Part shown: one piece after another, positions 24,415 to 42,459 of the stretch
How the letters are laid out: each line of letters opens with the position of its first letter
How positions within the stretch are numbered: the stretch's first letter is position 1
Source of the DNA: Minisyncoccota bacterium
GTDB taxonomy: Bacteria; Patescibacteriota; Minisyncoccia; Phycocordibacterales; UBA918
Reading direction: 5' to 3'
Length of the DNA: 64,000 bases
Assembly (NCBI GenBank): GCA_022841645.1
Contig: JALHRC010000003.1
Location: 6,553 to 70,552 of the forward strand
Notes under the pieces: model-generated
Told to the model about the DNA's origin: nothing
The model's database searches: none
What the model saw: the letters and a program-made list of their open reading frames with translations, nothing else
Made by a program: the position numbers and the translations under genes

Positions 24415-25287
24415 CTACATTCCAATTTTCCACGTACCCTTTTCTAAAAAGGCTTCAATGGTCTGCCGTTTTGCCTTGTTGATGAGATTGGGGTGAGAGA
24501 GCCGTTTGCTTTTTGCATAACTAGCTAACGTCACAATTTGTTTACCCTCAAGATATGCCAGGTGTCTATGGTAGCTATTACACAGTGCTCGACCGACAAT
24601 GTCTTCCATAACTCGCGTCATACCCGCACGATCATATTCTTTGAATGCCTCATAGTACTGTGTGCGCTCCATGAATTTTATATTGATGGGTACGTACCCG
24701 TCACGAATGAGAAGGTAGTTGTTCATTACACGTCCGATGCGGCCGTTGCCGTCGACAAAAGGGTGGAGGTGCTCAAACGCTAAGTGTAGTCGCGCTATGC
24801 GAGCAATGATGTGTGAGGCCGTGTCGCCCCTGTAGGTAGCGAGAATATCGTGCATGGTAGGTAGGAGCGTCTTTGGGTCGGGTGCGATGTGGGTACCGAC
24901 ACGCACGTACTCGTTAGGTTGGCGGAAACGACCGGCAATATCTTTACTGATGTTTCCGAGCAGCATTTCATGTAGTGATAGAAGAAGTGTTGTATCGAGC
25001 TCTCGAGCTGGTGCCTGCTTTTCAACATATTCCATTACTCGCGCTAAATTCTTGGCCTCAAATAATTCCCGCTCCGACACGTAGCGACTTAATTCGAGCT
25101 CGAGCAAGATTTTTTCGGTTTCTTCCAGCGTCAAGGTGCTATTTTCGATAGCGTTTGAGTTGTAAACATGGTCTGCTACTTCGGCCTCGCGCAATAGGAC
25201 GACCAAGGCCTCTTTGCCAGTTATTGCGCGGTGGTACCGAAGGCGTAGCGTGTCGACCAGCTTAGCGAGTTTCAAAAGTTTTTTCAC
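24415..25287 (-). CDS. Fic family protein
   Basis: Fic motif HPFVDGNGRIGR. Confidence 0.85.
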   Translation of the reverse strand: MKKLLKLAKLVDTLRLRYHRAITGKEALVVLLREAEVADHVYNSNAIENSTLTLEETEKILLELELSRYVSERELFEAKNLARVMEYVEKQAPARELDTTLLLSLHEMLLGNISKDIAGRFRQPNEYVRVGTHIAPDPKTLLPTMHDILATYRGDTASHIIARIARLHLAFEHLHPFVDGNGRIGRVMNNYLLIRDGYVPINIKFMERTQYYEAFKEYDRAGMTRVMEDIVGRALCNSYHRHLAYLEGKQIVTLASYAKSKRLSHPNLINKAKRQTIEAFLEKGTWKIGM

Positions 25288-26833: not shown

Positions 26834-29524
26834 TTATATTTCGCTTAATAATACATCAACCATACGGATTGCTTCCTGCGACAAGTCTGGGGCCAATAGT
26901 CCACTGTCTCTGTAGGATATGACGAGGAGACGGAAGGCAGTAAGCACATTACGCTCCTGAAGGCGAGCAAAAGTAGGCTGGAGGGACCGTCGTTGTCGAT
27001 TGTATTCACCTAATCTCAGCGTACTAACAAGTCTATTCTTTTCTAGTGTCGGCAAGGTAAGGGTATTTACGAACGCCAGCGCGACAGGATAGGTCACTAC
27101 CACCCCGTTAGTGTTGTAGTGGCGATCAGTGACGCCATTTCCATCATAATCTACCGAAAGTACCACTGGCGACAGACCGGGGGAGATCGCGGCTATTACC
27201 ACGGTGTTGGTGGCCGAGGGAACCCCCGAAAAAGTTTGCCGCTTTTTAAGTTCATTACCTTCGTGTAGTTCAATATCAAGCGTAAATGAACCTTGGGCGT
27301 AACCACGGAGCTCAAGGATGATATCAGGTATGTCGGCCGGTAATGATATGTACTGCAATTCACCAAAACGACGATAAGTAGCATTTGGGATGTCGACAGT
27401 AGAACTACTCACCTCACCTTCACTAGTTACAATCGACAAATCTAGTGGGGAGTGGAGCTGGAAAGTAAGGCGTGAAAATCCTGTAAAATCAGGTTGTGTT
27501 TTGGTGAGGTAATTGTATGTTTCATCAAAACTAGCACTATTAATAGTATTTTCTACGAAACTTATAAGGTCGACCACTTCAAGAATATTTGAATGCTTTC
27601 TGTTTGGTGCATTGTCGTCGTTATACTCAAAGAGATTCAACCACCATCTCTCGACATTATTACCAGTTAATGCAAGTGCACTCGGAGTAACTACTGTCTC
27701 GTCGCCATCGATCACTGTTCGTATTTGAGGCCGGACCTCCCATAGGTACTGAATACAAGTGCCAGAAATAAACTTCGCGCAAACTCGTACTGTAGTGTAC
27801 GTAATTTTAGCCGGTGTCGATAGTCCTACCCCAGCAATTTGGTAGACTTCTAATGTCTGCGGTGGCTGCCAAGCAGCTTGTTTTTCTTCAATTTCCCGTG
27901 CATAGGCCAAAAGCTCATCGTTTAATAGCTGCGGTGTAACCAGGTCTTGGTCTAGTGCCCGAGAACGACCACTGCTGCTACCAAGAAAACGATGGAGAGT
28001 AGATCGGTCAGTAATGTCACCGTAGTCGTCACGCCAGGCAGTGGTAGATGCTCCTGCCTCAAAGTCTATAACCGGAGTGGAAACGCTGCCACCCTGACCA
28101 TCAAAATATTCCTGATTAGGAAGTAAATGATACCCCATTGGCATGTTAGTGAGGAGCCGGCGTGACATTTCTTCATCGAGTACAAAACCGAGACCAAGAT
28201 CAGTGCCGTGAAGAAGAGATATTAGAGCTTCCGGCGTCCCCACCTGTGGTACGGCAACAAGAATCAGATTATCAATCTTGGCAAGCAGCGGATCATTCGC
28301 TTCTTCAAGTTCAATCAAAAACTGCTTTGCCACCAATCCCCCGTTTGAATGTGCCACCAGGGTTACCTTGCTTGAGAGCGATGTGGATGCTAAAGCGGCC
28401 AAGGTTTTATAGAGATGTTGCTCGCGGAGCGGCAAGTCTCGCCGCGACAATAGTTGGTCAGTGGTGGCTGCGCGCCATGATAGCAATGTGTCCGATAACT
28501 TGAGGCGCCAATCGTACGGCACAATAGCGTAATCAGCGATTATACCTTCACCTCGCCAGTCATCAAGCGAATTGACGAAGGATTTATAGTAATTAAGTGT
28601 GTAGGCTTCGTCCACGAGTCCCCGCCGCCCGACATACGTGTACAGAGGGTTAATTGATTCTCCCGCACTGCTCATCGACATTCGTGCCTGGAAACATTCG
28701 TTGCTATCTACCCAAACTTCGTGTTCTTCCCCATCGGCTGCGCAGGCGTTGGTTACCTCAAACAACCGCGACCCCATTACGCCTGGCAAAAACAGCACAC
28801 TCGACGCACCGGTCGGCGAGGGCTCTTCGGGCGCCAAAGTGAAAGTAAGCGTAGTTACCCTGTTTGGTAGGTGCCCATGAGCGTGAGCAGTAGCGACAAG
28901 CCACTCCCACCAAGGCCGTCTATGCTCGACGTTGTAAATCATCGATTCAACAACAACCATTGTGTAGGTGCCAGCAAGTAGTGGCGGTTGAGGGTGGGTG
29001 AGGCTGTAGAGGTAATCGAGTAAATCGCCATAGCGGTTGGAACTTTCTTCGTCGTCAGGAAACGGCTCACTGTCATTGTTAAGAAAGGCTTCAATGTACG
29101 GAGTAACATCAATTTCTGGCGGAAAAAAGTCGTCTGCAGCAGCGCGGTATTCGGCTTCGGTGTAGGATGGTGGATTCAGCGAAACATAGGTGTAGCTGTT
29201 ACCATCATGTCGGTACACATGGGGCTCAGCAAATGAGTAGGTGGTGTCACTATCGAACTGAAATGCTGTCGTCCCCAACGGAGGAATGAGTACCGTGGCG
29301 CCCTCTTCAACCACCGTTCCCTCAATGCGCAAAACGCCGGGCACCCCTTCATCGGTCACGCCAAACGGATTTTGGCAGTCGGTAATTGGATAGGTGAAAA
29401 TAGCATCTGCGCTAAGGTGGAATTGTGGACCTGTGATAGTGCCACACCCCTCTGCGTGGACGTACGAAACTGGTCCTACAAAAATGAGGAAGATGAGAAC
29501 CGCGACGAAGCGCCAGGTGCTCAT
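26834..29524 (-). CDS. secreted multidomain protein with lipase/esterase-like alpha/beta-hydrolase domain
   Basis: signal peptide; LFLPGVMGSRLFEV (LCAT/PGAP1-like) and nucleophile elbow LVAHSNGGLVA (AHSxG as in Bacillus LipA); 896 aa. Confidence 0.5.
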   Translation of the reverse strand: MSTWRFVAVLIFLIFVGPVSYVHAEGCGTITGPQFHLSADAIFTYPITDCQNPFGVTDEGVPGVLRIEGTVVEEGATVLIPPLGTTAFQFDSDTTYSFAEPHVYRHDGNSYTYVSLNPPSYTEAEYRAAADDFFPPEIDVTPYIEAFLNNDSEPFPDDEESSNRYGDLLDYLYSLTHPQPPLLAGTYTMVVVESMIYNVEHRRPWWEWLVATAHAHGHLPNRVTTLTFTLAPEEPSPTGASSVLFLPGVMGSRLFEVTNACAADGEEHEVWVDSNECFQARMSMSSAGESINPLYTYVGRRGLVDEAYTLNYYKSFVNSLDDWRGEGIIADYAIVPYDWRLKLSDTLLSWRAATTDQLLSRRDLPLREQHLYKTLAALASTSLSSKVTLVAHSNGGLVAKQFLIELEEANDPLLAKIDNLILVAVPQVGTPEALISLLHGTDLGLGFVLDEEMSRRLLTNMPMGYHLLPNQEYFDGQGGSVSTPVIDFEAGASTTAWRDDYGDITDRSTLHRFLGSSSGRSRALDQDLVTPQLLNDELLAYAREIEEKQAAWQPPQTLEVYQIAGVGLSTPAKITYTTVRVCAKFISGTCIQYLWEVRPQIRTVIDGDETVVTPSALALTGNNVERWWLNLFEYNDDNAPNRKHSNILEVVDLISFVENTINSASFDETYNYLTKTQPDFTGFSRLTFQLHSPLDLSIVTSEGEVSSSTVDIPNATYRRFGELQYISLPADIPDIILELRGYAQGSFTLDIELHEGNELKKRQTFSGVPSATNTVVIAAISPGLSPVVLSVDYDGNGVTDRHYNTNGVVVTYPVALAFVNTLTLPTLEKNRLVSTLRLGEYNRQRRSLQPTFARLQERNVLTAFRLLVISYRDSGLLAPDLSQEAIRMVDVLLSEI

Positions 29525-29668: not shown

Positions 29669-29883
29669 TTATGTAAGAATGATTAAGAAATCGCCCGCGC
29701 CTCCCTCAAAAGAGTGTGCGGGCTTTTCGTTGTGTGGGGTATAATTTTCACGAACAACAATGAGTACTGGAGCTTGCCAACTCTGGCAAATGTCCATGAG
29801 AGCAAAGGTGCCCTCGTACGCGGGCCCGCACCAAAACCAGGTAGAGAAGTCCGGTGCAGGACTTGACCCAGAATCACGGATTT
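29669..29883 (-). pseudogene. decayed fragment of an EEP (exonuclease III-like) gene paralogous to 44434-45162
   Basis: minus-strand translation ...APDFSTWFWCGPAYEGTFALMDICQSWQ... aligns with APEQLAVPLSKLGYQTTFAPMDIRQSGQ of the EEP protein; nucleotide block 29778-29812 about 85% identical to 44980-45015; no start codon. Confidence 0.4.
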
Positions 29884-30140: not shown

Positions 30141-30182
30141 CCTCGCACTCGAGCCCGCACGCAAAACTGTTTGCGTGCTATA

Positions 30183-30220
30183 CCAAAAAACAATACCCAC
30201 TAGGGGGTATTGTTTTTTGG
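30183..30220. terminator. terminator hairpin 3' of tRNA-Val
   Basis: CCAAAAAACAATACCC-ACTAG-GGGGTATTGTTTTTTGG. Confidence 0.65.
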
Positions 30221-30230
30221 TATGCTCAAG

Positions 30231-30303
30231 TGCGCGGTGCAGGACTTGAACCTACGACCCCCACAATGTCAATGTGGTGCTCTACCAGCTGAGCTAACCG
30301 CGC
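30231..30303 (-). tRNA. tRNA-Val (anticodon GAC)
   Basis: reverse complement: acceptor GCGCGGT/ACCGCGC, D-arm GCTC-AGCTGGTA-GAGC, anticodon loop TTGACAT, T-arm GTAGG-TTCAAGT-CCTGC. Confidence 0.9.
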
Positions 30304-30479
30304 GTGAGTCGAAAGATGGTACCACGCGCCACAAAAATGTGAAATGCAGGTTTTGCTCGGGGGGCTTTTTTGAAGGTAAACCGCTGTTTTTTGGTGGCGG
30401 CGTAACCGTTCCGGGCTAAATGAGAATTAGTGAATTGTTCCAAAATTGCACCGGGTACTCTAGCGGGGAGGTGGTTTGT

Positions 30480-31648
30480 AGCCACGAGTAGGCAACTTTC
30501 ATGGCTTCAAATAAGTCTTATTTACAAACTGTGCATGAGAGCTAATGCACAAGTTCACAAACATTTGAGACTCCTTAGCAATAAGGAAACCATGAGAATA
30601 CGGAGCACGTTGAGAGGAGTGAAGGGGTTTGTGGTGGCGTGGGAGCGTCTGGTACGGTTCCGCTATATGATTAGCGACAAAGCCAAGGAACGGTGCCGGA
30701 TCCTCGCCTTCTGGGAACGACATGGTCTTGACGCCACGAGAGAAGCCTTCGGTGTCTCGCGGGCCACACTCTTCCGCTGGCAACAAGCGCTCCAAAAGAG
30801 ACAAGGGAAACTAGAAGGACTGAATGCCAAGAGCACGGCTCCGAGGCGAAGGCGACAGCGCACCATTCCTGACGCGGTCCGGAACCTCATCTTGAGCGAA
30901 CGCCTCATGGATCCTCGCCTCGGCAAAGACAAGCTGGCTCAGTTAATCAAAGACGACGGCCTCGGCACGTATAGTGCCTCGACCGTGGGGCGGATGCTTA
31001 AGGATCTGCAGCGACAGGGGGTACTCCCTGATCCACGACCGCTGTCCTTTCATGGGAAGACCGGCAGACACCACGAGAAGCACCAGTCATACAAGCCCAA
31101 GCAGCGCAGCACGCACCACGAAGGTGCCCTGGCGAAAGCCGATACGGTGGTGCGGTTTATCGATGGTCTAAAACGATACATCGTCACCGGTATCGATACT
31201 GAGACCAAGTTCGCGTTTGCCTATGCCTATCCGAGCCACTCGTCAGCGGCCGCCGCCGACTTCATGCGTCTCTTTAAAGCGGTGGCACCCGTCTCCATCA
31301 CCCACGTGCAGACTGACAACGGTTCGGAGTTCGCCTGTCACTTCGAAGCCACCTTGGGTGCATATGGGATAACTCACTTCCATACGTACCCGCGCTCTCC
31401 TAAACAGAATGCCGAGATCGAACGCTTTAACCGCACCCTCTGGGAAGCCTTTGCTCGGTACCGCAAGACCACCCTGGCTCATGACCTCTCGGCCTTTAAT
31501 CGAGAGCTGATGGAGTGGCTCCTCTGGTACAACACGAGGCGACCCCACCAGACGCTTGGCCAAGTATCACCGCTAGGGTACATTGTGTCGACGTTATCAG
31601 AGGTGGAGTCTCAAAGGTGCTGGACGAGTACAAGCTATTGACAAAACA
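30480..31648 (+). mobile_element. IS481-like insertion sequence (right end defined, left end uncertain)
   Basis: right terminus TACAAGCTATTGACAAAACA (31629-31648) resembles IS481 terminal repeat ...TACAACCTATTGACAGTTCACA (from memory); no matching left inverted repeat found. Confidence 0.4.
30592..31641 (+). CDS. IS481-family DDE transposase
   Basis: N-terminal HTH (GVSRATLFRWQQ), rve core with YNTRRPHQTLG; ATG 30592 with AAGGA RBS (ORF track extends to 30430); stop lies within a terminal repeat-like sequence. Confidence 0.8.
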   Translation: MRIRSTLRGVKGFVVAWERLVRFRYMISDKAKERCRILAFWERHGLDATREAFGVSRATLFRWQQALQKRQGKLEGLNAKSTAPRRRRQRTIPDAVRNLILSERLMDPRLGKDKLAQLIKDDGLGTYSASTVGRMLKDLQRQGVLPDPRPLSFHGKTGRHHEKHQSYKPKQRSTHHEGALAKADTVVRFIDGLKRYIVTGIDTETKFAFAYAYPSHSSAAAADFMRLFKAVAPVSITHVQTDNGSEFACHFEATLGAYGITHFHTYPRSPKQNAEIERFNRTLWEAFARYRKTTLAHDLSAFNRELMEWLLWYNTRRPHQTLGQVSPLGYIVSTLSEVESQRCWTSTSY

Positions 31649-31716
31649 AGCAAAAGGTGCATTATTGAAGATGGACTACAACGCAACAGCTGCAAAACCC
31701 AAGGAGGATCGCAGCC

Positions 31717-32214
31717 ATGTCCTTTTTCACCACCCGCCGCCTGCTCGTCATCGCCGCGCTCGGCTTCGTCGTCGCCTGTGGGCCCGACAACCGCCCGCAG
31801 CCCGTCGCTTCGGCGCAGTCCGGCGCCCAGCCGGCCTTCGCGGTCATGCCGTCCACGGCCACGCCGCCGGCGCCCACCCAGGTCGCCATGCCGCTGACGG
31901 CCTCGGCCATCTCCGGCCGGTGGAGTCGCTCTGCGCAGTTCCTGGAGCGGAATCCGCAGATCGCCGATGCTCGTGTCGACTTCCAGGACGGTGTCATGAC
32001 CATCTATGATGCCCAAGGTGCTGTGCGCAATCGTGCTACCAGGGTCTCCGGCCAGTTCAATACCTATACGGAGTTCAGTGCCCAGACCATGACCCGGATC
32101 ACCTGGAGGTGCGATACCGTCTCCGAGGGCGCCGCGATTGCCTGCAATGCCGAGGCACTGTACCTCAACACCGGGAATACCAATCGTTGGACGTCCCGCT
32201 ACAGCAGAATCTGA
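31717..32214 (+). CDS. lipoprotein of high-GC (foreign) composition
   Basis: 165 aa; lipobox VVAC; about 68% GC versus about 53% host; followed by two strong terminators. Confidence 0.5.
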   Translation: MSFFTTRRLLVIAALGFVVACGPDNRPQPVASAQSGAQPAFAVMPSTATPPAPTQVAMPLTASAISGRWSRSAQFLERNPQIADARVDFQDGVMTIYDAQGAVRNRATRVSGQFNTYTEFSAQTMTRITWRCDTVSEGAAIACNAEALYLNTGNTNRWTSRYSRI

Positions 32215-32220
32215 GTCCAC

Positions 32221-32258
32221 AGGCCCTCTCCGCAGAAAACTTTCTGCGGAGAGGGCCT
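32221..32258 (+). terminator. perfect 18-bp-stem hairpin terminator
   Basis: AGGCCCTCTCCGCAGAAA-AC-TTTCTGCGGAGAGGGCCT; second hairpin GCGCCGGT-AACATGA-CCGGCGC at 32292-32314. Confidence 0.65.
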
Positions 32259-32351
32259 ACTAAAATTGGTGTACAATAAATAAGTTGCGTTTATGCGCCG
32301 GTAACATGACCGGCGCTTTTCCTTAGGTATAATTAGTCTACAATACTAGCC

Positions 32352-34310
32352 ATGTCCTACTCAGTCGTTGTACCTACTTACTGTCGTCCGGCGAAACTCA
32401 ATCAGTGTCTATGCACTTTGCTTGAACAATCTATCTTACCGGGGGAGGTTCTAGTTGTTGATGATGATTCCCCTGGGCAGGCCACACATCAAGTGTGTCT
32501 AGATTTGGATAATCTATTTCAGCAAAAAAATATCAACCTTAGGTACCTAAAACACAGTAAAAATCGCGGTCCTGCTGCGGCACGGAATACTGGGTTGCGA
32601 AGTGCCGTGTTTGAAACTGTCTTCTTTACAGATGATGACTGCATCTTGCCAACTGAGTGGGCTAGTAATCATATACGAACACATGAATGTCATGTCGACG
32701 CCGCTGCGGTCCATGGGTGGTACACTCCAAAGGCAGGTAAGAATATATATGACGAATACGAAGAGGTTTCTTTAAATCTTTTGCTTCCAGATTTTTTTAC
32801 GTCAGAAATATACGGAGACAGTCCCTTGGTCCCTCTTGCTAATACAGCAAATCTCTCAGTCAAAAAGAGTATTTTAGAGAAAGCCCAGGTATATTTTGAT
32901 GAAAGTATTGTTTTTACCGGTAATGAAGATTTTGAATTCTCCTTGAGTATAAATCAAAAAGGACTTAGTCGTGTCCATATCCCATTTTGTGTTATTCATG
33001 ACAGGGTGTGGGATCTCAGGAGCTACATCAAAGCTGGTGTTTTGCGAGGAAGAGGTCATGACTATTGCGTTCAGAAGTATTTTTTTGGAAGAGGACGAAA
33101 GAGTCTTTTTGCTTTTGTGTCAGTAGCATTGTTTAAGTCGTTTGAGTATGGTTCAAGAAGGTTGCATTTGGTTTTTCTTCTTACGTACTTAAGTCACTGG
33201 TTGGGCAAGACAGTCAACGTTGTAGCGAATTTCAAGCCGCCCCAACCGCTCACATTTGGTATAAGGGTTTCAAGCATGGCTTGGAAAAAAGAAGGTTTAA
33301 TTATCAGGAAACACGAGTGGCATCCCTTTTATGCGGCACATCGATACTCTAATAGGCCACCAAGCACAGGTAATACTTTTTGCTCAGTTATAGTGCCCAC
33401 TTATGATCGTTCGAGTTTATTAAAACTTCAACTTCCATATATTTTAAATCAGAGTATCAGCGCTGAACGTTATGAAATTATTATTGTTGATGACGGGTCA
33501 ACCGATGATACTGAAGAGGTTGTTTCGGATCTTGTTAAACGCAACCCAACTCATACTATTAGGTACATCTATCAAAAAAACCACGGTGCAGCAGCTGCTC
33601 GTAATGCTGGAGCAAAAATAAGTAAGGGCGACCTATTAATTTTTATTGATAGTGATGTGGTTCCTGACCGGCACTGGATTAGTGACCATGTATATGCACA
33701 TAGCTTATTTCCAGAAATATCAGCCGCCGGTGGAGGTCAAATTGTTGAAGCAGAAAACGCGACCATTTTTGACAAGCACAGAAATTCACTTTTTTGTAAT
33801 CAGTTTGCAAAAAGGTACCCTTATTCAACTCTAATTACTAACAATACCTTTCAGCGAGTTCATGCTTTTGACACAGGGAATTTGTCTATTAAAAAAAACG
33901 CCCTTGAATCCCTGGGCGGCTTTGATGAAGATCTATTAAGGCATCAAGATATGGAATTTGGTTTTAGACTACAGAACAGCGGTCGACTGGTTGCTTTGTT
34001 ACCAATTACGGTAAAATCGATAAGATCGACCACTTTCAGGGATTTTATAGATCTTGTCAGAAAACAGGCAATTTCGTACCCAATCCTTTTTCAAAAAATA
34101 AAGCCCTTACCGAAAGAATCATTGAGAATAAAAAACTCAATAGAGAACTACGGCATTTTAATGGCTTTGTTAAATTTTTTATTCAACATTAGCACCTTTG
34201 GCAGGGTTTATTTAATAGAGTGGTTTGTTTTAAAAAAGTACTACAAAACAGTACAGAGTCGTGAAGGCTCAAATTCAAATAATCACGATAGTTCGTTGTC
34301 CTCCGTTTAA
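32352..34310 (+). CDS. tandem family-2 glycosyltransferase (two GT-A domains)
   Basis: two copies of VVPTY..D(D)(D) and GxAAARNxG motifs (aa about 1-110 and about 335-440); AT-rich. Confidence 0.75.
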   Translation: MSYSVVVPTYCRPAKLNQCLCTLLEQSILPGEVLVVDDDSPGQATHQVCLDLDNLFQQKNINLRYLKHSKNRGPAAARNTGLRSAVFETVFFTDDDCILPTEWASNHIRTHECHVDAAAVHGWYTPKAGKNIYDEYEEVSLNLLLPDFFTSEIYGDSPLVPLANTANLSVKKSILEKAQVYFDESIVFTGNEDFEFSLSINQKGLSRVHIPFCVIHDRVWDLRSYIKAGVLRGRGHDYCVQKYFFGRGRKSLFAFVSVALFKSFEYGSRRLHLVFLLTYLSHWLGKTVNVVANFKPPQPLTFGIRVSSMAWKKEGLIIRKHEWHPFYAAHRYSNRPPSTGNTFCSVIVPTYDRSSLLKLQLPYILNQSISAERYEIIIVDDGSTDDTEEVVSDLVKRNPTHTIRYIYQKNHGAAAARNAGAKISKGDLLIFIDSDVVPDRHWISDHVYAHSLFPEISAAGGGQIVEAENATIFDKHRNSLFCNQFAKRYPYSTLITNNTFQRVHAFDTGNLSIKKNALESLGGFDEDLLRHQDMEFGFRLQNSGRLVALLPITVKSIRSTTFRDFIDLVRKQAISYPILFQKIKPLPKESLRIKNSIENYGILMALLNFLFNISTFGRVYLIEWFVLKKYYKTVQSREGSNSNNHDSSLSSV

Positions 34311-34324
34311 AAGCAACTCAATAT

Positions 34325-35851
34325 ATGGAATTAGACTCAGGGATATCAGATTTTACCACTCATGGTTCTGCAGAAAGACGTTTAATGTCTGAGGTTATTA
34401 AAGACTGCATATCTCACCCATTTACTCCGTTTAAGCCACTGCCAAGGAGCATTAAAGCCCTGGTTCTTTTTTGTTTATCCTGCGTTTGGTTTGTAGAGCT
34501 GCTTGGCAGGCGTAGATTCTTTACTGAAAGTAGTTTGGGCAATTTTTCAAATATTGATTCAAGAGTTCGGCGTGTTCTGGGTGAATTAGTCACACAGAAA
34601 GTGATTAAAATGTGGTACGTTTTTGCTACAAAATTATCGGGTGGGTCATCGGTGGTACAAGCGCTTATACAAATTGCTCCATACCAGGCTCCGAACGGCC
34701 TAATTTTTCCTTGGCCTGGTGGTTTAGCCTCTGGTGTAAGTATGAATCTGCACGACGCCATGTGCATAGCACTTGCCGAAACCGTCGAGCGCCACGCCTT
34801 GTACGCTTGGTCGTCAGAACGTAAATTTGAAGCTAGCTATAGAGAAGTTTTTAAAAAAGCTCTTCCGCTGCATGAGTTCAAACCTTACTCAGAGACACAA
34901 CTGTCAACACCGGATTTTTGGAACTGGTCTCTTAGGAATACTGATCAAAAGATGCTCTGGATGTGGTCAAATGAGTTTGTTTCTGGACTCCCCGTGTTAC
35001 TCCCCGCTCAACTCGTCTATTGTAACTATAACCAGGTTCGTCCCGACGAACAGCAGCTTTTAGAGGTTACTTCTAATGGCGTTGCAGCATCAACAAACCT
35101 TAAACTGGCGAGGCATAAAGCAATTTTGGAGGCAATTGAAAGGGACGCCTTTTTACTACATTGGCTTAACGAGACTCCACCCACATGCCTAGATATAGGT
35201 TCTATTGATGACGTTGAGATCCTGGGTCTGCTAGAAATTGTTAAAAAACATGACTACGAAATCACAATTCTCGATTTCCCCAATGATATACAGATACCCG
35301 TCATGGGAGCGCTCATGTTTGGTCCTTCTGGAAAAAGAGCCGTTACCATACAATTGGCTGCTGGCTTTGATGTAAGAGAAACCCTAAGGAAGGTAATTTT
35401 AGATTGCACTCGCTCGCTCCGCGTAGCTAATAGTGAAGTTTCGAAAAGCTTTTCCTACCAAGACATTATTAATAATCCCCAGTTAATTACAAATATAAAC
35501 AGCCGTCGCGAATTATGGCAACATCCAGAAATGATCCCCCATGTAAGTTTCTTAAAGAAAGGACAGGTCATTGGATGGCAGCAATATAAACATAACTATA
35601 GTCTACATTGCAGCATGTCTTTAAATGGTAAGGAGGAATGGGTGCGGACGCGTTTGCGATCACTAGGATATCAATGTTATGTAGCAAATATCACATCCAT
35701 CACAGCAAGACGTTATGGTCTGCATGTTACAAGAGCCTTTTTACCACAGCTCATACCAATGTATTTTGATGAGAAACGCGTCCCGCTCGGCATAATTAGA
35801 TTGAACAAAATGAGAGGCGGATTAAACACTGTTCCACACCCCTTCTTATAA
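34325..35851 (+). CDS. YcaO-domain protein
   Basis: GVSMNLHDAMCIALAETVERHALYAW and TSNGVAASTNLKLARHKAILEAIERDAFLLHWLN match the two hallmark YcaO ATP-binding motifs; about 130-aa N-terminal extension. Confidence 0.7.
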   Translation: MELDSGISDFTTHGSAERRLMSEVIKDCISHPFTPFKPLPRSIKALVLFCLSCVWFVELLGRRRFFTESSLGNFSNIDSRVRRVLGELVTQKVIKMWYVFATKLSGGSSVVQALIQIAPYQAPNGLIFPWPGGLASGVSMNLHDAMCIALAETVERHALYAWSSERKFEASYREVFKKALPLHEFKPYSETQLSTPDFWNWSLRNTDQKMLWMWSNEFVSGLPVLLPAQLVYCNYNQVRPDEQQLLEVTSNGVAASTNLKLARHKAILEAIERDAFLLHWLNETPPTCLDIGSIDDVEILGLLEIVKKHDYEITILDFPNDIQIPVMGALMFGPSGKRAVTIQLAAGFDVRETLRKVILDCTRSLRVANSEVSKSFSYQDIINNPQLITNINSRRELWQHPEMIPHVSFLKKGQVIGWQQYKHNYSLHCSMSLNGKEEWVRTRLRSLGYQCYVANITSITARRYGLHVTRAFLPQLIPMYFDEKRVPLGIIRLNKMRGGLNTVPHPFL

Positions 35852-35970
35852 ATTAAATCATTATTTTTTTGAATTTTACCTTTGCTTTATGAGAAAGGTG
35901 CAAGTAAAGTAGTGACCGTATGGTGTGCATAGACAGATTGCCTGCTTCTTGATCTGCTATAATAAATCCT

Positions 35971-37524
35971 ATGAGTTTTTCGTGGAAAACTAGCCTGGTC
36001 AAACTTTCTGAGAATCGCCCTCTCTGGCTTGTTGGGATGATGGTGCTGGTGTGGTTTGTTTTTGAGCCTGACTTCTTGGAGACAATATTTCAGTTTTTTG
36101 TAGTATTGTCGCAGGCTGCCGATGGTACGCCGTCAGGACAAGATTGCTCGTGCTGTGGAAATGCCCAAAATGGAGGGGAAAACTTCAACACATCAACACC
36201 TTTCTTGTGTGTTTATAAAAATGGTTCCTATGAAATTGACAATGATCTGATGTATGGCAAGAAGACAACTTTTTTTTCCAACTTTGAATTAGGAAGGCGT
36301 GTTTATGAAGAAGGAAGTCTCGTCCCTGAAATTTACAAAATCTCGACAAATCCTGATTTGATAGATGGAAAAATCAAACTACAGCTTATTGAGCTAGAAC
36401 CCGAGGATTCGTACATTGATACGGTTAAGTTATCAAAAATCATTTATCCTGCTACTGCTGAGTTGGTTGTTGATGCGTCTTTTAGCGGTATGTACGCGGT
36501 AAAACGTGACGACATTATTAACCGGGTGGGAGTTTCCGGGGTCAGCCTCACTCCGCAGTTTTTGGGCAATCGGCGATCAACTTCTCCTGAAATTAGTATT
36601 GAAAGATTATCTTCTGAACAACAATTCAATTCTCTTTGCCAAAAGAATCAGCCTGGCATACGCTTCGAAGACGGTGATGTCCTAGAAGTCACCGCTAAAG
36701 TTGAATCGCTTGAGGCCGATAAACTCCTTTTGTTTGTCGGGGCAAACTATCGAGACTGGCTGCTTTCTTCGGATGCGACACCGCGTACAGCACGGAAGAT
36801 CTTGAAGCGAACAGCTCTACTTAGTCCATTTTGGTCTAGTGCTGCTCGCGTTGCAATCATGATATTCATGCTTTTCCCGGTCTGGGTTGTTAGCTCGCTG
36901 CTGTCCACAAGCCGTCAGACAGCAAATGATGGTAGTGAAATGGACTTTATGCGAGCCTTTGGCATCCCCGCAACTAGTGCTGACGTTCCTTCTCGAACAC
37001 CGAAGTGTTTCAATGTGGAATATTGGGACGGTTCACATTTTGTGCCAATAACTTTTATTCAGCCACGATACTGTCACAGCACACTCGAGGCTGTGTCCGT
37101 ACCATGGGAAGCGGTGGACGGACAGGGTCTTCTTAAATTGAGACTAATCGCAACCAATACACACAATCTCTCTTATATCTCACTGGCCGCACCTTCGTCG
37201 TTGATGTTGTATAAATCAGCTGATCTCTCGCTCAGTTCGGCCCACTGCAATCGTGCTGGTGGTGACTCTACCGACGTACTCAGCTCGGAAAAAAATGCTT
37301 CATACGTTCATGTTATTCCTGCCGACACAATTGAGCTCGAGTTTACAGAACCAGGCAATTTTATTGCCAAAGAAGGCGAAAAGGAGTCCTACGTGATTAG
37401 TGTCCGCGGCTTTTACACTAGCCTTTCTGAGGAAAGTAAAGTAATTGCTGGAGACTGGGAATCAAGATTAAGTGAAGAGTCGGCTAACTGGCTGCAAGAA
37501 ATGGTTGCCATGGGACGACGCTAA
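35971..37524 (+). CDS. hypothetical membrane protein (517 aa)
   Basis: N-terminal and central TM segments; CSCCGNAQNGGE cysteine cluster; no known domain. Confidence 0.35.
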   Translation: MSFSWKTSLVKLSENRPLWLVGMMVLVWFVFEPDFLETIFQFFVVLSQAADGTPSGQDCSCCGNAQNGGENFNTSTPFLCVYKNGSYEIDNDLMYGKKTTFFSNFELGRRVYEEGSLVPEIYKISTNPDLIDGKIKLQLIELEPEDSYIDTVKLSKIIYPATAELVVDASFSGMYAVKRDDIINRVGVSGVSLTPQFLGNRRSTSPEISIERLSSEQQFNSLCQKNQPGIRFEDGDVLEVTAKVESLEADKLLLFVGANYRDWLLSSDATPRTARKILKRTALLSPFWSSAARVAIMIFMLFPVWVVSSLLSTSRQTANDGSEMDFMRAFGIPATSADVPSRTPKCFNVEYWDGSHFVPITFIQPRYCHSTLEAVSVPWEAVDGQGLLKLRLIATNTHNLSYISLAAPSSLMLYKSADLSLSSAHCNRAGGDSTDVLSSEKNASYVHVIPADTIELEFTEPGNFIAKEGEKESYVISVRGFYTSLSEESKVIAGDWESRLSEESANWLQEMVAMGRR

Positions 37525-37555
37525 TTTTTGAGCTAGTAATCTGAGCTAGTAATCT

Positions 37556-38668
37556 ATGAATAAAAAATTCATTCTAGGCGTCGTCGTAGCAGGTATTTTT
37601 CTGATAGGCATAATTTTTACAGTCTTCCTTTTTAACTCAAGTACTGAGCCTGCCGTAGAGCCTGGAAACGATTACACTACGGTGCCTGCCGTGACAGAGT
37701 CAGTACCAAAAGGAAAAATCTACCTGTCTCTTCGTACCCTGGGGACCAATCGGGTGGATTTATTCGCTTACGACTTCGAGAAGAAATCAATTGATCCGGT
37801 GCTGTCAACTGAGCCTGAAAAAATTCGCCATACAGGCGTTTTTAATGCTGAGGGCTCTCGCTTCGCCTACTTTGAGCTTTCGGAGTATAAGGAAGTCTAT
37901 GATTTTGGAACCTCTGGAGAAGACAATGAAATCCCTTGGAACCTTAAGGTCCGTGACTTTTCAAAGAAAAAAGCAACAACAGTATTCGATGTTATCTACA
38001 CTCTGAACACCCCTAGGTCACCGACATGGTCGCCTGATGGAACAAAGATTGCTTTTTCCTGGTGGTTAACTCAATCTGACATGGATGAGAAGTTCCGTGA
38101 TCTAAATAACTGGAGAATAAGCTGGCTTGAGCTTAACGACAAGTCTCAGTATAAAAATACAATTTCGCCATACTTCATTGGGACATCGCCTTTTTGGTCG
38201 CCCGATGGTAGCAGTATCATTTTTCAGAAGGCTGACGGCATATATCAAAAGTCGGTTGACACTCTTGAGGAGCAGCTTGTCCTCCCGCATCCGACAGGCA
38301 GTAGTACCAATCTTTTTTCTAAAATTGGTCTTTCGCCAGACAAGTCACTCTTTGCTTGGACATTTGTAGATTTTATTGAACATAATGCAGCTTCACTCGT
38401 TCTCTATCGGGTTGATTCATGGAGTCCATTCTCCGCACGCGCCGCTATTCGTCTTGAGGCCACTAACCCAGGATATCGTTATTACTGGCCGGTCTTTTCG
38501 CCAGATAACAAATACGTTACTGTACAGCGTATTATCCGTGACGCAGATAATAAGGCAGTGAGTTCTTCATTATGGGTATATGACGTTGAAACCGGAGAAA
38601 AGCAAGAAATTATTGACTTAATGGCCTACGACCCCGATGCCTTATTCATTTCTGATTGGAGATGGTAG
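37556..38668 (+). CDS. PD40/TolB-like beta-propeller repeat protein, membrane anchored
   Basis: repeated WSPDGTKIAFSW, WSPDGSSIIFQ, FSPDNKYVTVQ blades; N-terminal TM. Confidence 0.6.
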   Translation: MNKKFILGVVVAGIFLIGIIFTVFLFNSSTEPAVEPGNDYTTVPAVTESVPKGKIYLSLRTLGTNRVDLFAYDFEKKSIDPVLSTEPEKIRHTGVFNAEGSRFAYFELSEYKEVYDFGTSGEDNEIPWNLKVRDFSKKKATTVFDVIYTLNTPRSPTWSPDGTKIAFSWWLTQSDMDEKFRDLNNWRISWLELNDKSQYKNTISPYFIGTSPFWSPDGSSIIFQKADGIYQKSVDTLEEQLVLPHPTGSSTNLFSKIGLSPDKSLFAWTFVDFIEHNAASLVLYRVDSWSPFSARAAIRLEATNPGYRYYWPVFSPDNKYVTVQRIIRDADNKAVSSSLWVYDVETGEKQEIIDLMAYDPDALFISDWRW

Positions 38669-38680
38669 TTGCTTTCTTAG

Positions 38681-39478
38681 ATGAGTACACCCATTAGAGG
38701 CGGTTATTCTTTACTACTAGGCGGCACACTTCTTATGCTGTTTCTAGCCGCCTCTGGAAGTTTTTTCCATTTCGAAAACACAGCGCAGCTCTCGTTGTTG
38801 TACAGGGAAGACAAGCTGGGTCTTGCGAGCATATTTTTCTCCCGCGGGAATTATTACTTTGGGAAACAACCAGAGACCTATGACATCGAAAAAGCGGAGT
38901 GGAATTTCAAAACTGCCCTGCGTTTTGAAAATGTCCACAACGCACCCATTCATTATCAGTTAGGACGGGTGGCGTTTATCAAAGGTGACCTGCGTTTAGC
39001 TCTGGTGCACTTTAATGCACAACTCGAGGCCGATCCGACCTTTAACCGCAGCTACTACATGCGCGGCCTCACCTACGGTTATCTTAATAATTTTGCCAAG
39101 GCCGAAGAGGACTTTGCCGCCTACCTCGAGCGGGTCCCCGAGAGCTGGGCCGCGCACAACGACATCGTGTGGGTATATTTCCGTTCCGGACAATTCGCCA
39201 AAGCTGAAGAGTACGCCCGCAAAGGTCTAGCGGTCGCACCCGACAACGCCTGGCTTTCCAATGCCTTAGGAGGAATTTTGGTGAGTACTGGACGATACGA
39301 TGAAGCAGAGCCCTATTTACGTACTGCCCGTGAAGAATTTGAACTCATTGGTCCTGAAGGGTGGGGAAGGGCCTACCCAGGTAATGATCCTGCCATCTAC
39401 GAAATGGGATTTGAGGCCTCTCTAGCATCGGTTGACCACAATCTGTCCCTAGTAGCCAAAGCACAAAGTCGTGAATAA
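38681..39478 (+). CDS. TPR repeat protein with N-terminal TM anchor
   Basis: TPR-like 34-mer periodicity (AEEDFAAYLERVPESWAAHNDIVWVYFRSGQFAKAEEYARKGL). Confidence 0.6.
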   Translation: MSTPIRGGYSLLLGGTLLMLFLAASGSFFHFENTAQLSLLYREDKLGLASIFFSRGNYYFGKQPETYDIEKAEWNFKTALRFENVHNAPIHYQLGRVAFIKGDLRLALVHFNAQLEADPTFNRSYYMRGLTYGYLNNFAKAEEDFAAYLERVPESWAAHNDIVWVYFRSGQFAKAEEYARKGLAVAPDNAWLSNALGGILVSTGRYDEAEPYLRTAREEFELIGPEGWGRAYPGNDPAIYEMGFEASLASVDHNLSLVAKAQSRE

Positions 39479-39519: not shown

Positions 39520-41652
39520 GTGGACTACACTTTCATGTTCCCGCGCACTCTCTTGAGGCTCTCATACTGGCGTCTACTCGTAGTAGCTGTCGTCATGGCA
39601 ATAATTGCTGTTGCGTGGTGGACAGACGTTTTTGCCATCCAATCGGTGCCAGATAATGCGGCAACTGCTTACGACGCCGAGCTTTCGTTTGCAGCACATT
39701 CACCGCTTGGAAGTGACGGTGGTTCTGTTATCCCCGCGTCGTGTGATTCTGGTGTACTGCACTGGCCTGGCGATCTCGACGCCTGTCCAAGTGGCTGGGT
39801 GACGTATTGTTCAGGTGCGCTTCCTGGTGATCCTAACGGTCAGAACTGGCAGTGGTGGCGCTACTACGACAGTGCCGGGGGAAGAATTCATCGCTTCGTC
39901 AGTGAGGGCTATGGTACGTGCACTCCCGACGCTCCGTCGTCAATCAGCTACGAATGTTCACCTGATGGTCTTACTGCCACTACCACGTGGACCGCTTCCT
40001 ACGCAGCTGAAGCCTACTATCCGCGCATACAAGGCATCACTGTAGCGCAGTGTAGTGCCATGGGGTGGAATTGGTGGACCGATGGTGCAGGCACCAACAT
40101 TTGTTACAAAGATGCTTGGAATGCAACCTCAATGTTTACCTACGTTGGTAGTGGTTTTAATCGAGTGTATGTCCACTCTGGTCCGCCAGTCAATTGGAAC
40201 AAATTTGCTGATACTGGTTGGTTCCAGTGCCCAACAGCAACAGCCCTTCCTGCTCCCACACCCACCTACAGTTGCTCTGGTGATGGTACGCAGGTAACGG
40301 TGAATTGGAATGAGGTAGCTGGTGCGACCGAATACCATCCCCGCCTTTTGGGTATTACAGAAGCGCAGTGCAATGCTATCAGTGGCGGTGTTGGGTGGTT
40401 CTTTGATGCCAGTTCTAATTCCTGTGCATACAACAATCTTCCTGCAAGTTGGGGTACGCCACCGCGACAGCTTACCTTCAATCTTCGCCCCGGGGGGTAT
40501 CAGCACGCTTTTTGGGTACATGCAAGTAGGGATGCGATTCCCGAGACTACTAGTCCAGCTGGATCAACTGGATACTTCTCCTGCCTTCCCGCCCCCACCA
40601 ACCTAAGTGGTTCGTGTAGTGCCGATGGTACCGAAGGAACTATCACCTGGACAGCACCCGCGGGCTACACTACTTTCTACACACGCGCTAGTGCCGTGGC
40701 TCAGGGTAGGAATGACCTCGTTGGTGTACCCAACACAACAGATGATCCGTGGGATGATAATGTGGTTGGCACCTCGAAGTCATTTACTACCGATCCTGGC
40801 GAAACCTACTACGTCTGGATACACACTAAAAATACTACTAATGGAACGTGGAGTGATCCTGCAAGAACGCAGTTCACCTGCCCCGATTCGCTTGCCGGAA
40901 CACCTCCTCCGTCACCGCGGTTAAACTCCGCTATCTGTAGACCTGATCCGAGCGATCCGTCAGTTGGTCTGGTCACGCTTAGTTGGGAACGCGAAGCACG
41001 TGCTACCAGTTACGATGTACGGGCGCGCTGGATCAATCCTTCAACGGAAACCAACCCAGCAGAAGCTTGCCCTAATGGTAAGTACAGTACGCAGGAGCGG
41101 TGGTGTTGGAATTCGGTTGGACAAAGTTTCACTACGGGCTACTCTCAAACCAATGACACAGCGAGTTTCTCTTTCAGTGGCTTGCCGCTTGATAATAATA
41201 AGAATTATACGTGGTGGGTACACTCTAGAAACGCTGCCGGGTCAAGTAACCCTCCATCACACGCGAATAGCAATATAACGTTTACCTGTGCCGTGGGTAC
41301 TCCACCGGAGGCTGGTGACCCGCCAGCGGTCCTTGCCCTCACTGCTACTCCCAGCCTTATTCTTCCCGGACGCACGACTACCCTCAACTATCGCATAGAG
41401 GCACCGTATGACATGGACTGTACGATAACCGGCGGTGACAGCAGTTATCCTGAAATTAACTACCGGCCAACGCCGTCCCTACCAGTAACTGGTGCTGGTA
41501 TTCCGTATCTAGAGGACACTATTTCTTCAGCACCGATAGTTGCCACCACTAACTTTGTACTTAGTTGCGATCCGGTACCTAATATAAACCCGCCTGGTGA
41601 ACGAGAAGCCAGTGTCCGTGTGGAGATCGTACCAACATTTGAAGAACGGTAG
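39520..41652 (+). CDS. secreted/membrane-anchored repeat protein, paralog family member 1 (710 aa)
   Basis: signal anchor; CPSGWVTYCSG...NWQWWRY module; repeated FN3-like segments; shares RWxxxSTxxxPxxxCPNGKYSTQERWC block with 43109-44428. Confidence 0.45.
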   Translation: MDYTFMFPRTLLRLSYWRLLVVAVVMAIIAVAWWTDVFAIQSVPDNAATAYDAELSFAAHSPLGSDGGSVIPASCDSGVLHWPGDLDACPSGWVTYCSGALPGDPNGQNWQWWRYYDSAGGRIHRFVSEGYGTCTPDAPSSISYECSPDGLTATTTWTASYAAEAYYPRIQGITVAQCSAMGWNWWTDGAGTNICYKDAWNATSMFTYVGSGFNRVYVHSGPPVNWNKFADTGWFQCPTATALPAPTPTYSCSGDGTQVTVNWNEVAGATEYHPRLLGITEAQCNAISGGVGWFFDASSNSCAYNNLPASWGTPPRQLTFNLRPGGYQHAFWVHASRDAIPETTSPAGSTGYFSCLPAPTNLSGSCSADGTEGTITWTAPAGYTTFYTRASAVAQGRNDLVGVPNTTDDPWDDNVVGTSKSFTTDPGETYYVWIHTKNTTNGTWSDPARTQFTCPDSLAGTPPPSPRLNSAICRPDPSDPSVGLVTLSWEREARATSYDVRARWINPSTETNPAEACPNGKYSTQERWCWNSVGQSFTTGYSQTNDTASFSFSGLPLDNNKNYTWWVHSRNAAGSSNPPSHANSNITFTCAVGTPPEAGDPPAVLALTATPSLILPGRTTTLNYRIEAPYDMDCTITGGDSSYPEINYRPTPSLPVTGAGIPYLEDTISSAPIVATTNFVLSCDPVPNINPPGEREASVRVEIVPTFEER

Positions 41653-41707: not shown

Positions 41708-42130
41708 ATGTACCCTTGGCTACAAAAAATACATACAAATGTGGTCAAAAGACCGCTAGCGATGTTATTAATCGCGGTCTGTATTGCACAGCTAGTTTTT
41801 GTTATCGCACCAGCTTTTTCGTTCGTGGAAGAGATTGTGCGTGTAACAACAGCTGCCTCGGCTACCACGGTAGAGGCACAGGATAAGGTGCCGCCACACG
41901 CCGGTATTTTGCGGCGCACCTGGGTGCCTCCCGTATTTGAAGATCGTTGTGAGCAGGCGTGTGGCCACGATGACAATGGTTCTTTTTGCTGGAATGATTG
42001 TGGACCAAAGTATGCTGGTGGTGGGTACTTTACCGAAAGCTGTGACCCCGGCTACTACCTGACCCGCTACTATCTCAATCTAGTCAACGACGCCAACGCT
42101 ATTTGGTGGCAGTGTAATAGCCTTGAATAA
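41708..42130 (+). CDS. small secreted Cys/Trp-motif protein, paralog family member 2
   Basis: 140 aa; N-terminal TM; C-terminal CDPGYYLTRYYLNLVNDANAIWWQCNS. Confidence 0.4.
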   Translation: MYPWLQKIHTNVVKRPLAMLLIAVCIAQLVFVIAPAFSFVEEIVRVTTAASATTVEAQDKVPPHAGILRRTWVPPVFEDRCEQACGHDDNGSFCWNDCGPKYAGGGYFTESCDPGYYLTRYYLNLVNDANAIWWQCNSLE

Positions 42131-42132
42131 GT

Positions 42133-42459
42133 ATGACAAACACATCTCTTACCCTCTACTACGTACGTGATGCCATGGCGTCACTCGCAGTTCTGGTCGT
42201 GGTGGTGCTGGCGACGTTTGTCACCTTGCTGGAAGCGCGGGTGCTGCCAGCGTCGCTGGTGTCGAGCGTCATAGTGACCCAGAGTGCGCAAGCAGCTACC
42301 TGGGAAGCACGTGTCGGGCGGCTTCACTGGAACGGCAATCCCTATCCAGGTGCACAAGTGTGGTGGTGTGATCCCGGTTATTGGCTCACGTCAAATTACC
42401 TCGCCGTAGATAATACCAACAATACCATCTGGTATAACTGTGTCACCGGTGCCTGGTAG
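42133..42459 (+). CDS. small secreted Cys/Trp-motif protein, paralog family member 3
   Basis: 108 aa; C-terminal WCDPGYWLTSNYLAVDNTNNTIWYNCVTGAW parallels member 2. Confidence 0.4.
   Translation: MTNTSLTLYYVRDAMASLAVLVVVVLATFVTLLEARVLPASLVSSVIVTQSAQAATWEARVGRLHWNGNPYPGAQVWWCDPGYWLTSNYLAVDNTNNTIWYNCVTGAW

Follow-up and report, generated by a model that had tools for sequence, protein, structure and literature searches.

The closest described counterparts of the system reported here are the thiazole/oxazole-modified microcin (TOMM) or linear azol(in)e-containing peptide (LAP) systems, such as McbBCD of microcin B17 and SagBCD, and the cyanobactin enzymes TruD, LynD, and PatD. We compared with them a locus in a 64,000-nucleotide stretch of DNA from a Minisyncoccota bacterium (contig JALHRC010000003.1, positions 6,553 to 70,552; hereafter the window), in which an operon at positions 32352-39478 encodes a 508-aa YcaO-domain protein and a 517-aa envelope protein that we call F517. 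The window YcaO shares with the TOMM enzymes the YcaO ATP/Mg motifs and possibly a Pro-rich C-terminus; TruD, MusD, and LynD are its top matches, relatives of the window locus carry a SagB-like dehydrogenase, and the likeness to microcin B17 extends to candidate cores of the window type, which are Gly/Cys/Ser-rich. In contrast to the TOMM systems, loci of the window type have neither an E1-like/Ocin-ThiF partner or fusion, nor a recognition element (RRE) of the kind found with peptides made by the ribosome and modified after translation (RiPPs), nor a discrete leader peptide gene, and in the window itself a membrane helix tethers the candidate core, which is fused to F517, and the dehydrogenase is missing.

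YcaO enzymes also act on full-length proteins: a YcaO-TfuA pair forms the thioglycine of McrA, and the YcaO of E. coli works with ribosomal proteins. Large or folded protein substrates therefore have precedent, but these systems make thioamides or aid methylthiolation via TfuA or RimO, neither of which is in the window, and they are much less similar to the window protein. For the window locus we propose, as an evenly balanced judgment, that a TOMM-type YcaO acts on a membrane-anchored, protein-embedded core beside an envelope/glycan module, the chemistry, the substrate, and the roles of the GT2, PD40, and TPR proteins all being putative.

In candidate-phyla-radiation (CPR) bacteria, 'LAP' clusters of YcaO (plus nitroreductase) were recorded in 93 genomes by antiSMASH-type mining, with YcaO and an adjoining nitroreductase in Parcubacteria, Microgenomates, and other CPR (Sharrar 2020, mBio, PMC7298704; on CPR YcaO/LAP clusters see also PMC12153355). 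These are probably the same cluster population as the F517 loci described below. The published account differs from our loci in describing a small 84-aa precursor and a 'peptidase', but neither a neighbourhood of F517, PD40, TPR, and F5 proteins nor membrane-anchored embedded cores, and the window variant departs from its clusters in having no nitroreductase. A literature search found no published description of the F517-propeller-TPR association. An earlier note on this DNA, made from the sequence alone, had held the gene combination to be an undescribed cluster type that would be unexpected in CPR; this view was not borne out, as the gene set recurs in dozens of CPR loci and LAP clusters are on record in the 93 CPR genomes (PMC7298704). 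The genes at the centre of the analysis are the following.

32352-34310, + strand: 652-aa glycosyltransferase with two GT2 domains in tandem (PF00535 matched over two stretches, E 1e-51)
34325-35851, + strand: YcaO-domain protein, 508 aa, probably of TOMM/azoline type (PF02624, SagD-model, and TruD/MusD/LynD profile matches)
35971-37524, + strand: F517, 517 aa, of a family found within the searches made here in CPR (Patescibacteria) assemblies only
37556-38668, + strand: PD40/TolB-like beta-propeller, membrane-anchored, 370 aa (Pfam PD40, E 2e-12), without a peptidase domain
38681-39478, + strand: TPR protein, membrane-anchored, 265 aa (Pfam TPR, E ~1e-17)
39520-41652, + strand: large secreted or anchored protein, 710 aa, counterpart of the F5 proteins by tblastn and synteny, with host-like GC

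The YcaO protein and its neighbourhood in CPR genomes

Five packed + strand open reading frames (ORFs) occupy 32352-39478 in the order GT2-YcaO-F517-PD40-TPR, exactly where the earlier note had placed them, and are separated by gaps of 14, 119, 31, and 12 nt, in gene order. Pfam agrees with the domains that had been named, namely two GT2 domains, YcaO, PD40, and TPR. The 508-aa protein scored 155.9 bits with the PF02624 YcaO model, above the curated cutoff of 25.7, over residues 137-476. The two YcaO motifs quoted in the earlier note were both located, ALAETVERHALYAW spanning aa 149-162 and AILEAIERDAFLLHW spanning aa 266-280, and the residues E152, E155, R156, E269, E272, R273, and D274 of the Mg/ATP signatures ExxER and ExxERD are invariant in the YcaO alignment. 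The protein ends in VPHPFL and its relatives in PHPF(L/I/P), aligned with the C-terminus PTPMPF of TruD; a C-terminus of the PHPF type is typical for TOMM enzymes. Among solved structures, a profile of the clade matched TruD best (1e-42), with TruD, MusD, and LynD spanning 1e-42 to 6e-41, and gave weaker matches to the thioamide enzyme MJ1094 (4e-22), McbD (8e-11), and the E. coli YcaO (5e-5). Judged from its sequence, the window YcaO is probably of the azoline type. It is not the form associated with ribosomal protein S12, given the 5e-5 match to the E. coli protein and the absence of RimO from the window.

The N-terminal ~130 aa of the YcaO protein had no PDB, Pfam, or NCBIfam match and may be a poorly conserved start of the YcaO fold; the matched region of TruD begins at residue 411, and the YcaO domain of TruD presumably starts ~95 residues before that position. 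Close relatives of the window YcaO are very few, the best having 32% identity, and identical copies of the YcaO region were found on 8 contigs from several samples. Among the 46 window ORFs there was no E1/ThiF, TfuA, RimO/radical-SAM, or nitroreductase gene, in agreement with the missing E1/TfuA/dehydrogenase partner of the earlier note.

The absence of dehydrogenase and E1 partners from the window, together with a weak match to TIGR03266 (51 bits versus a cutoff of 365; 1e-13), would also fit a YcaO that, instead of forming azolines, carries out thioamidation or amidine formation with a protein as its substrate; the thioglycine of McrA provides a precedent for protein substrates. However, TfuA and sulfur-donor genes are absent from the window as well, the YcaO is much closer to azoline heterocyclases than to MJ1094, a SagB-type dehydrogenase is present in all relatives, and the PHPF C-terminus is of the kind generally seen in TOMM enzymes, so that such a reaction appears highly improbable.

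The related loci, designated by L numbers, included 23 from species-representative genomes, obtained by scanning with the F517 family alignment, and 41 from metagenomes. All 23 genome loci belong to metagenome-assembled genomes of Patescibacteria/CPR (Parcubacteria, Kaiser-, Sung-, Morani-, Nomura-, and Saccharibacteria, and Paceibacterota). Analysis by tblastn and neighbour clustering gave a core order of YcaO, nitroreductase, F517, a PD40 propeller or a transmembrane (TM)-anchored TPR-like/F11 protein, TPR protein, and the large secreted F5 protein; variable genes upstream of this core include a sugar-nucleotide gene set and GT2 genes, and some loci also have an ATP-grasp-like gene and a methyltransferase. 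The window order GT2-YcaO-F517-PD40-TPR-F5 matches the order in L008-L010, L034-L037, and others, and the genes that follow YcaO in L005 encode a nitroreductase, a PD40 propeller, and a 531-aa homologue of F517 (31%, 3e-60). The YcaO-nitroreductase pair was present in 29 of the 37 non-redundant loci with usable flanks and lies immediately 5' of F517, in the same orientation, in ~15 loci, while F517, the propeller, the TPR protein, and GT2 were found both with and without YcaO. Gene content, family membership, and synteny were observed directly in these loci, and the window locus almost certainly belongs to this recurrent CPR block. Side variants of the pair were also seen: L012 (8248-9750) and L015 (7619-9124) encode a 500-aa fusion in which an N-terminal HemK/PrmC-like methyltransferase, bearing an NPPY motif, is joined to the nitroreductase, and L008-L010 have a separate methyltransferase gene that, like an ATP-grasp-like gene, lies before YcaO.

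The window is the sole YcaO locus seen without an adjoining nitroreductase, which all other YcaO loci examined have, and tblastn found no nitroreductase, ATP-grasp, or methyltransferase partner in the whole 64 kb. This single case among more than 30 YcaO loci, the strongest GC deviation among all loci, and the IS481 transposase and the lipoprotein gene of extreme composition at the operon edge would be consistent with a functionless YcaO remnant in a transferred or rearranged locus that lost its dehydrogenase, ATP-grasp, and methyltransferase genes, only the envelope/glycan module still mattering. We consider such decay unlikely, since the YcaO ORF is full-length and keeps all invariant catalytic residues and the C-terminal motif, starts 14 nt after GT2 inside the operon, and occurs in identical copies on the 8 contigs, and since CSCC is kept in the linker of F517. 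On balance, the window YcaO is predicted to be still active.

F517 and the candidate YcaO substrates

The 517-aa protein had been described previously as a membrane protein; its hydrophobic helices agree with this, and it belongs besides to a conserved two-domain family, to which no Pfam or NCBIfam entry matched. An N-terminal hydrophobic helix (aa 18-31) leads through a Cys/Ser/Gly linker into the first jelly-roll domain (aa 75-262), and a TM helix in the centre of the protein (aa 291-311) separates this domain from another jelly-roll (aa 345-515). An AlphaFold model computed with a 50-sequence alignment reached a pLDDT of 80 and a pTM of 0.74, with linker aa 42-71 disordered (this run was used in place of AF2 on the single sequence, which was unusable at pLDDT 33). 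The model places both domains in the beta-sandwich/jelly-roll fold class and suggests that they are carbohydrate-binding-module-like (CBM-like). An exhaustive HMMER search with F517 returned 202 cluster representatives of ~500 aa each; a word-index homology search matched only F517 itself, and the pattern used for the species-representative genome scan missed the window F517, which has EPEDSY in place of EPEESY. In L022 (10001-11305) and L023 (10001-11287) F517 is split between two genes whose order is reversed, domain 2 being encoded ahead of domain 1. Each of the two genes has a helix and a linker of its own, which fits internal duplication of a helix-linker-jelly roll unit.

Between the first hydrophobic helix and the invariant STPFL motif, the F517 proteins have a variable segment that is often a run of Gly, Cys, Ser, and Asp, as in LCACDCDCSCDGGSGDCSGTCGCGNGG… and ECGCGDGGG…CSSGCNTADCTAGECSSGCGS. 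The juxtamembrane linker of the window F517 is Cys/Ser/Gly-rich (…AADGTPSGQDCSCCGN…), and a motif with the family consensus FGxxxAxADxP stands after the helices of F517 itself. Two segments of the window protein are relevant here.

36106-36192, + strand: candidate YcaO substrate segment in F517, aa 46-74, LSQAADGTP-SGQDCSCCGNAQNGGENFNT, directly before the invariant STPFLC and disordered in the model; putative substrate
36955-36990, + strand: second post-TM motif copy in F517, AFGIPATSADVP, aa 329-340, preceding domain 2 and conforming to the family consensus

The proposed system would consist of three layers: an envelope module of membrane-anchored extracytoplasmic proteins (F517, PD40 propeller, TPR protein, and the large secreted F5 protein); variable glycan genes, which in the window would be the two-domain GT2 of the co-polymerase type; and a TOMM-type modification pair of YcaO cyclodehydratase and SagB-like nitroreductase. 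In the cytoplasm, YcaO would use ATP to activate backbone amides, and Cys (perhaps Ser) residues would be cyclodehydrated to azolines within a segment rich in Cys, Ser, and Gly and located after a membrane helix and an AxAD-x-P-like motif. The substrate would be the N-terminal linker of F517 in the window (aa ~55-74, DCSCCGN) and a stand-alone mini-protein in some relatives. In relatives generally, the adjoining dehydrogenase would oxidise the azolines to azoles. As the window has no dehydrogenase gene, its system would halt at the azoline stage, draw on an enzyme encoded elsewhere, or be in decay. That the locus modifies peptides or proteins, as suggested in the earlier note, is plausible.

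No conserved small ORF was detected in the operon gaps of the window (12-119 nt) or of L008-L010, and a hunt for small ORFs up to 5-7 kb from YcaO was negative both for the window and for loci of the L008-L010 type. Four stand-alone ORFs combining a TM segment, an AxADxP motif, and a Cys/Gly/Ser/Asp-rich tail (for example, …SEASADTP-SCGGGDASCTPGDDDSCAGGGCSCGDACGGCSCGGG…) were found in other loci, all YcaO-positive, where they adjoin YcaO-nitroreductase pairs.

L025:2819-3097, + strand: stand-alone mini-gene
L057:6345-6653, + strand: stand-alone mini-gene
L074:5631-5963, - strand: stand-alone mini-gene, an ORF missing from the public annotation
L076:11192-11614, - strand: stand-alone mini-gene

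These mini-genes are likely membrane-anchored LAP precursors. They occur exactly where F517 has no Cys run (L025 and L057) or where there is no F517 (L074 and L076), and the window linker aligns with their products at AD-x-P, followed by S/C. A strict architecture filter applied to 1.03 Mb of loci plus the window returned L025, L057, and L076 only, the L074 mini-gene having come from a looser scan. A ~410-aa polytopic membrane protein without a Pfam match (L025:3118-4344 and L076:4688-5950; 49% identical mutually) accompanies the stand-alone Cys-rich peptides and the YcaO pair and may be an exporter or processing factor.

The distribution of the Cys-rich segments follows the presence of YcaO: at least one Cys occurs in the 45-aa linker before the first domain in 19 of 29 YcaO-positive loci and in 0 of 8 loci from which YcaO is verifiably missing within at least 4 kb on both sides (Fisher p = 0.001, uncorrected for phylogeny). 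We see about an even prospect that the F517 linker or the mini-proteins are the YcaO substrate. The more specific version, in which a TOMM core lies within the full-length CPR envelope protein F517, azol(in)es form in its linker, and the mini-precursors are the unfused form, is put forward tentatively, as a possibility short of even.

Several observations weigh against this proposal. In ten of the 29 YcaO-positive loci linker 1 contains no Cys, some of these ten having CxCxC runs in linker 2, and phylogeny confounds the link between Cys and YcaO, the Gly/Cys-rich linkers being largely those of one clade. Within its group, the window linker has the lowest Cys/Gly content, with 3 Cys. By positive-inside count, linker 1 appears to face outward (3.1 versus 1.1 K/R), so that modification would need to come before export; the same rule was ambiguous for the central TM helix. 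BLAST and hhalign gave no significant homology between the stand-alone peptides and F517 N-termini, which limits the claim to a common architecture and a short motif, and the TM-AxAD-core alignment, used as a search profile, recovered the L025 peptide and, beyond that, nothing but truncated F517 fragments. In L074-L076 the YcaO pair adjoins TPR and F5 genes without F517 (none within ±6 kb in L074 and L076), and F517 is thus no obligatory partner of the pair. On the enzyme side, the best NCBIfam match, to TIGR03604 SagD, spans the full model (positions 1-376) at 190.2 bits, below the cutoff of 219.25; no E1-like/Ocin-ThiF partner or RRE was detected in the window ORFs or among neighbours in related loci; and the window lacks the dehydrogenase.

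An alternative is a conventional LAP/TOMM RiPP cluster, whose small precursor would be unlinked or unrecognised, with F517, PD40, TPR, and GT2 serving export, immunity, or an unrelated envelope function and the linker being a flexible or a metal- or disulfide-binding tether. Such a cluster would account for the existence of F517, PD40, and TPR without YcaO and for the ten loci without Cys in linker 1. Distant CPR YcaO loci, L072/L073, have the corresponding arrangement of a C39 peptidase, a soluble 66-aa Cys/Ser-rich ORF, YcaO, and nitroreductase, which counts against an embedded core, and the published account of the CPR clusters places its 84-aa precursor in a Microgenomates cluster (Sharrar 2020, PMC7298704). 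However, the operon of the window, of L008-L010, and of similar loci neither contains nor adjoins a candidate small ORF; the sole stand-alone Cys-rich ORFs found share the N-terminal layout of F517 and occur where F517 has no Cys run; and the YcaO-nitroreductase pair stands directly 5' of F517, in the same orientation, in ~15 loci. We therefore regard a conventional cluster as rather unlikely, though it is a reading to be taken seriously.

Glycan, propeller, and surface protein genes

The DxD motifs of the two GT-A domains in the tandem GT2 protein are intact (VVDDDS/FTDDDC and IVDDGS/FIDSDV), and a hydrophobic helix lies at its C-terminal end (aa 602-627). Its closest PDB sequence is the chondroitin polymerase K4CP (9e-25, two matched stretches). 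The two GT-A domains in one chain and the C-terminal hydrophobic segment recall K4CP and the Pasteurella heparosan synthase, although the window GT2 is similar to them at the domain level only. Full-length relatives of the protein sit 5' of YcaO in L012, L044, L053, and L064.

The window PD40 propeller, which showed a weak TolB match, is homologous to the propeller of L005 (28%, 1e-22) and to propellers in 13 or more loci, and the TPR protein is the best-conserved member of the neighbourhood, with 31-44% identity across loci. Machineries for exopolysaccharides of the Bcs, Pga, and Alg types combine a carbohydrate-binding co-subunit with a TPR scaffold. The window differs from them in having no multi-pass processive synthase, outer-membrane porin, or c-di-GMP module, and the similarity is one of fold, at ~10% identity. 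Because GT2, PD40, TPR, and F5 are kept in the absence of YcaO, and because their folds suggest carbohydrate handling and scaffolding, we assign them to the F517 envelope/glycan module rather than to RiPP tailoring.

Compared by tblastn with the F5 protein of L010, the 710-aa gene gave matches at both ends (5e-5 and 5e-6), and matches were also found in L074/L075; the related F5 protein of L010 contains a thrombospondin type-1 repeat. The 710-aa protein (39520-41652) is a paralogue of a 439-aa protein (43109-44428), with 33% identity over ~300 aa, and the 439-aa protein shares a CxPGYxL…W(Y/W)xC module with a 140-aa (41708-42130) and a 108-aa protein (42133-42459). By their sequences, these four proteins form a predicted family of anchored or secreted Cys/Trp-rich surface proteins.

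The two small proteins had been named in the earlier note as possible substrates, and its comparison of the GT2 enzyme with glycocin S-glycosyltransferases of the SunS type would make YcaO and the double GT2 joint modifiers of the Cys/Trp-rich secreted proteins at 41708-42459. The 14-nt gap between GT2 and YcaO and the small Cys-containing secreted ORFs nearby would fit such a system, and a GT2 enzyme beside peptide-modification genes is a feature shared with SunS-like glycocin loci. The window differs from these loci in having a tandem GT2 of the polymerase kind, nearest to K4CP and without a fused TPR, and no glycocin precursor, C39-ABC exporter, or thioredoxin genes; neither a C39/ABC transporter nor a thiol-disulfide oxidoreductase was present among the window ORFs. 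In relatives, GT2 genes are separable from YcaO, and GT2, PD40, and TPR accompany F517 irrespective of it. The ORFs at 41708-42459 were rejected as YcaO substrates, since they share the folded CxPGYxL…WxC domain with the 439-aa neighbour, their GC is host-like, and none of the related loci has a counterpart. A glycocin-like system is accordingly very improbable and ranks last among the explanations weighed here.

Composition and flanks of the operon

In 1-kb segments, the GC content of the operon was 0.40-0.45 compared to ~0.53 in the flanks. The GC content at third codon positions (GC3) was 0.35, 0.39, 0.42, and 0.43 for operon genes 1-4, all below the minimum of 0.455 among the 41 other window genes (mean 0.56, sd 0.07), whereas the TPR gene is host-like at 0.51. 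The lower GC that had been ascribed to all five genes thus applies to the first four, and the compositional anomaly covers ~32.3-38.7 kb, part of the operon interval. The operon is preceded, in this order, by a tRNA-Val gene, an IS481-type transposase, and a high-GC lipoprotein gene, and no terminator-like site was found between the TPR gene and the 39520-41652 gene. The features of the upstream edge are as follows.

30430-31641, + strand: intact IS481-type DDE transposase (HTH_32 + rve + rve_3 by Pfam), upstream edge, context
31717-32214, + strand: lipoprotein-like gene, 165 aa (GC 0.655, GC3 0.82), between the transposase and the AT-rich operon
32221-32258 and 32295-32316: two hairpins upstream of the promoter-like site, which close the upstream lipoprotein gene
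32306-32333, + strand: promoter-like site ATGACC-16-TATAAT, 19 nt 5' of the GT2 start, a consensus match only

On the horizontal acquisition suggested in the earlier note, the observations point both ways. The atypical composition, the IS481 element, and the mosaic upstream edge favour acquisition or replacement. In contrast, the same genes are GC-poor across CPR (a difference from the flanks of -0.02 to -0.08 in most CPR loci and of -0.096 in the window), and synteny runs on into the host-GC gene 39520-41652; both observations weigh against an island. A repeat search found no flanking direct repeats delimiting an island around 32.2-38.7 kb, and no donor is identifiable because all relatives are ~30% identical.

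Several further observations concern the flanks. On the Logan contigs L001 and L002, the cluster is flanked by identical copies of the IS481 transposase. The 3' end of tRNA-Val is associated with an 18-nt direct repeat, 94% identical, at 29852-29869 and 30235-30252 (383 nt apart), and a 22-nt perfect-type palindrome (30180-30223) abuts the tRNA gene; these could be what is left of an integration site, separated from the operon by the tRNA. Also on the far side of tRNA-Val, a further and less marked low-GC stretch (0.45-0.49) includes genes for an 896-aa LCAT-like alpha/beta-hydrolase (26834-29524, - strand) and a Fic/DOC protein (24415-25287, - strand). The 165-aa lipoprotein-like gene may match small secreted 'F19' proteins beside the propeller in L005 and L008-L010, and a 207-aa ORF antisense to it (31597-32220) is probably a high-GC artefact. 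Elsewhere in the window, a homologue of F420-0:gamma-glutamyl ligase (CofE-like, PF01996, 1e-31) at 2658-3398 (+ strand) is unexpected for a presumed reduced CPR genome.

Compared to the described systems, the window locus is unusual in its putatively protein-embedded, membrane-anchored substrate, in a conserved tie to an envelope module seen here only in CPR, and in having no dehydrogenase. If the proposal of a TOMM-type YcaO acting on such a core is true, YcaO/TOMM chemistry would not be confined to small secreted peptides but would include membrane-anchored modules and an envelope protein of full size, which would explain the 'LAP' clusters that genome-mining tools flag in CPR without precursors. 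It would also tie a backbone-modifying enzyme to a cell-surface block, found here in CPR only, whose members are F517 with its two CBM-like domains, a propeller, a TPR protein, and large proteins resembling adhesins. This block is a candidate for a role in host attachment or in the envelope biology of these episymbionts, which are uncultured. Should the chemistry not hold, the F517 family and its conserved neighbourhood would still provide a concrete, testable entry into the envelope biology of CPR bacteria.

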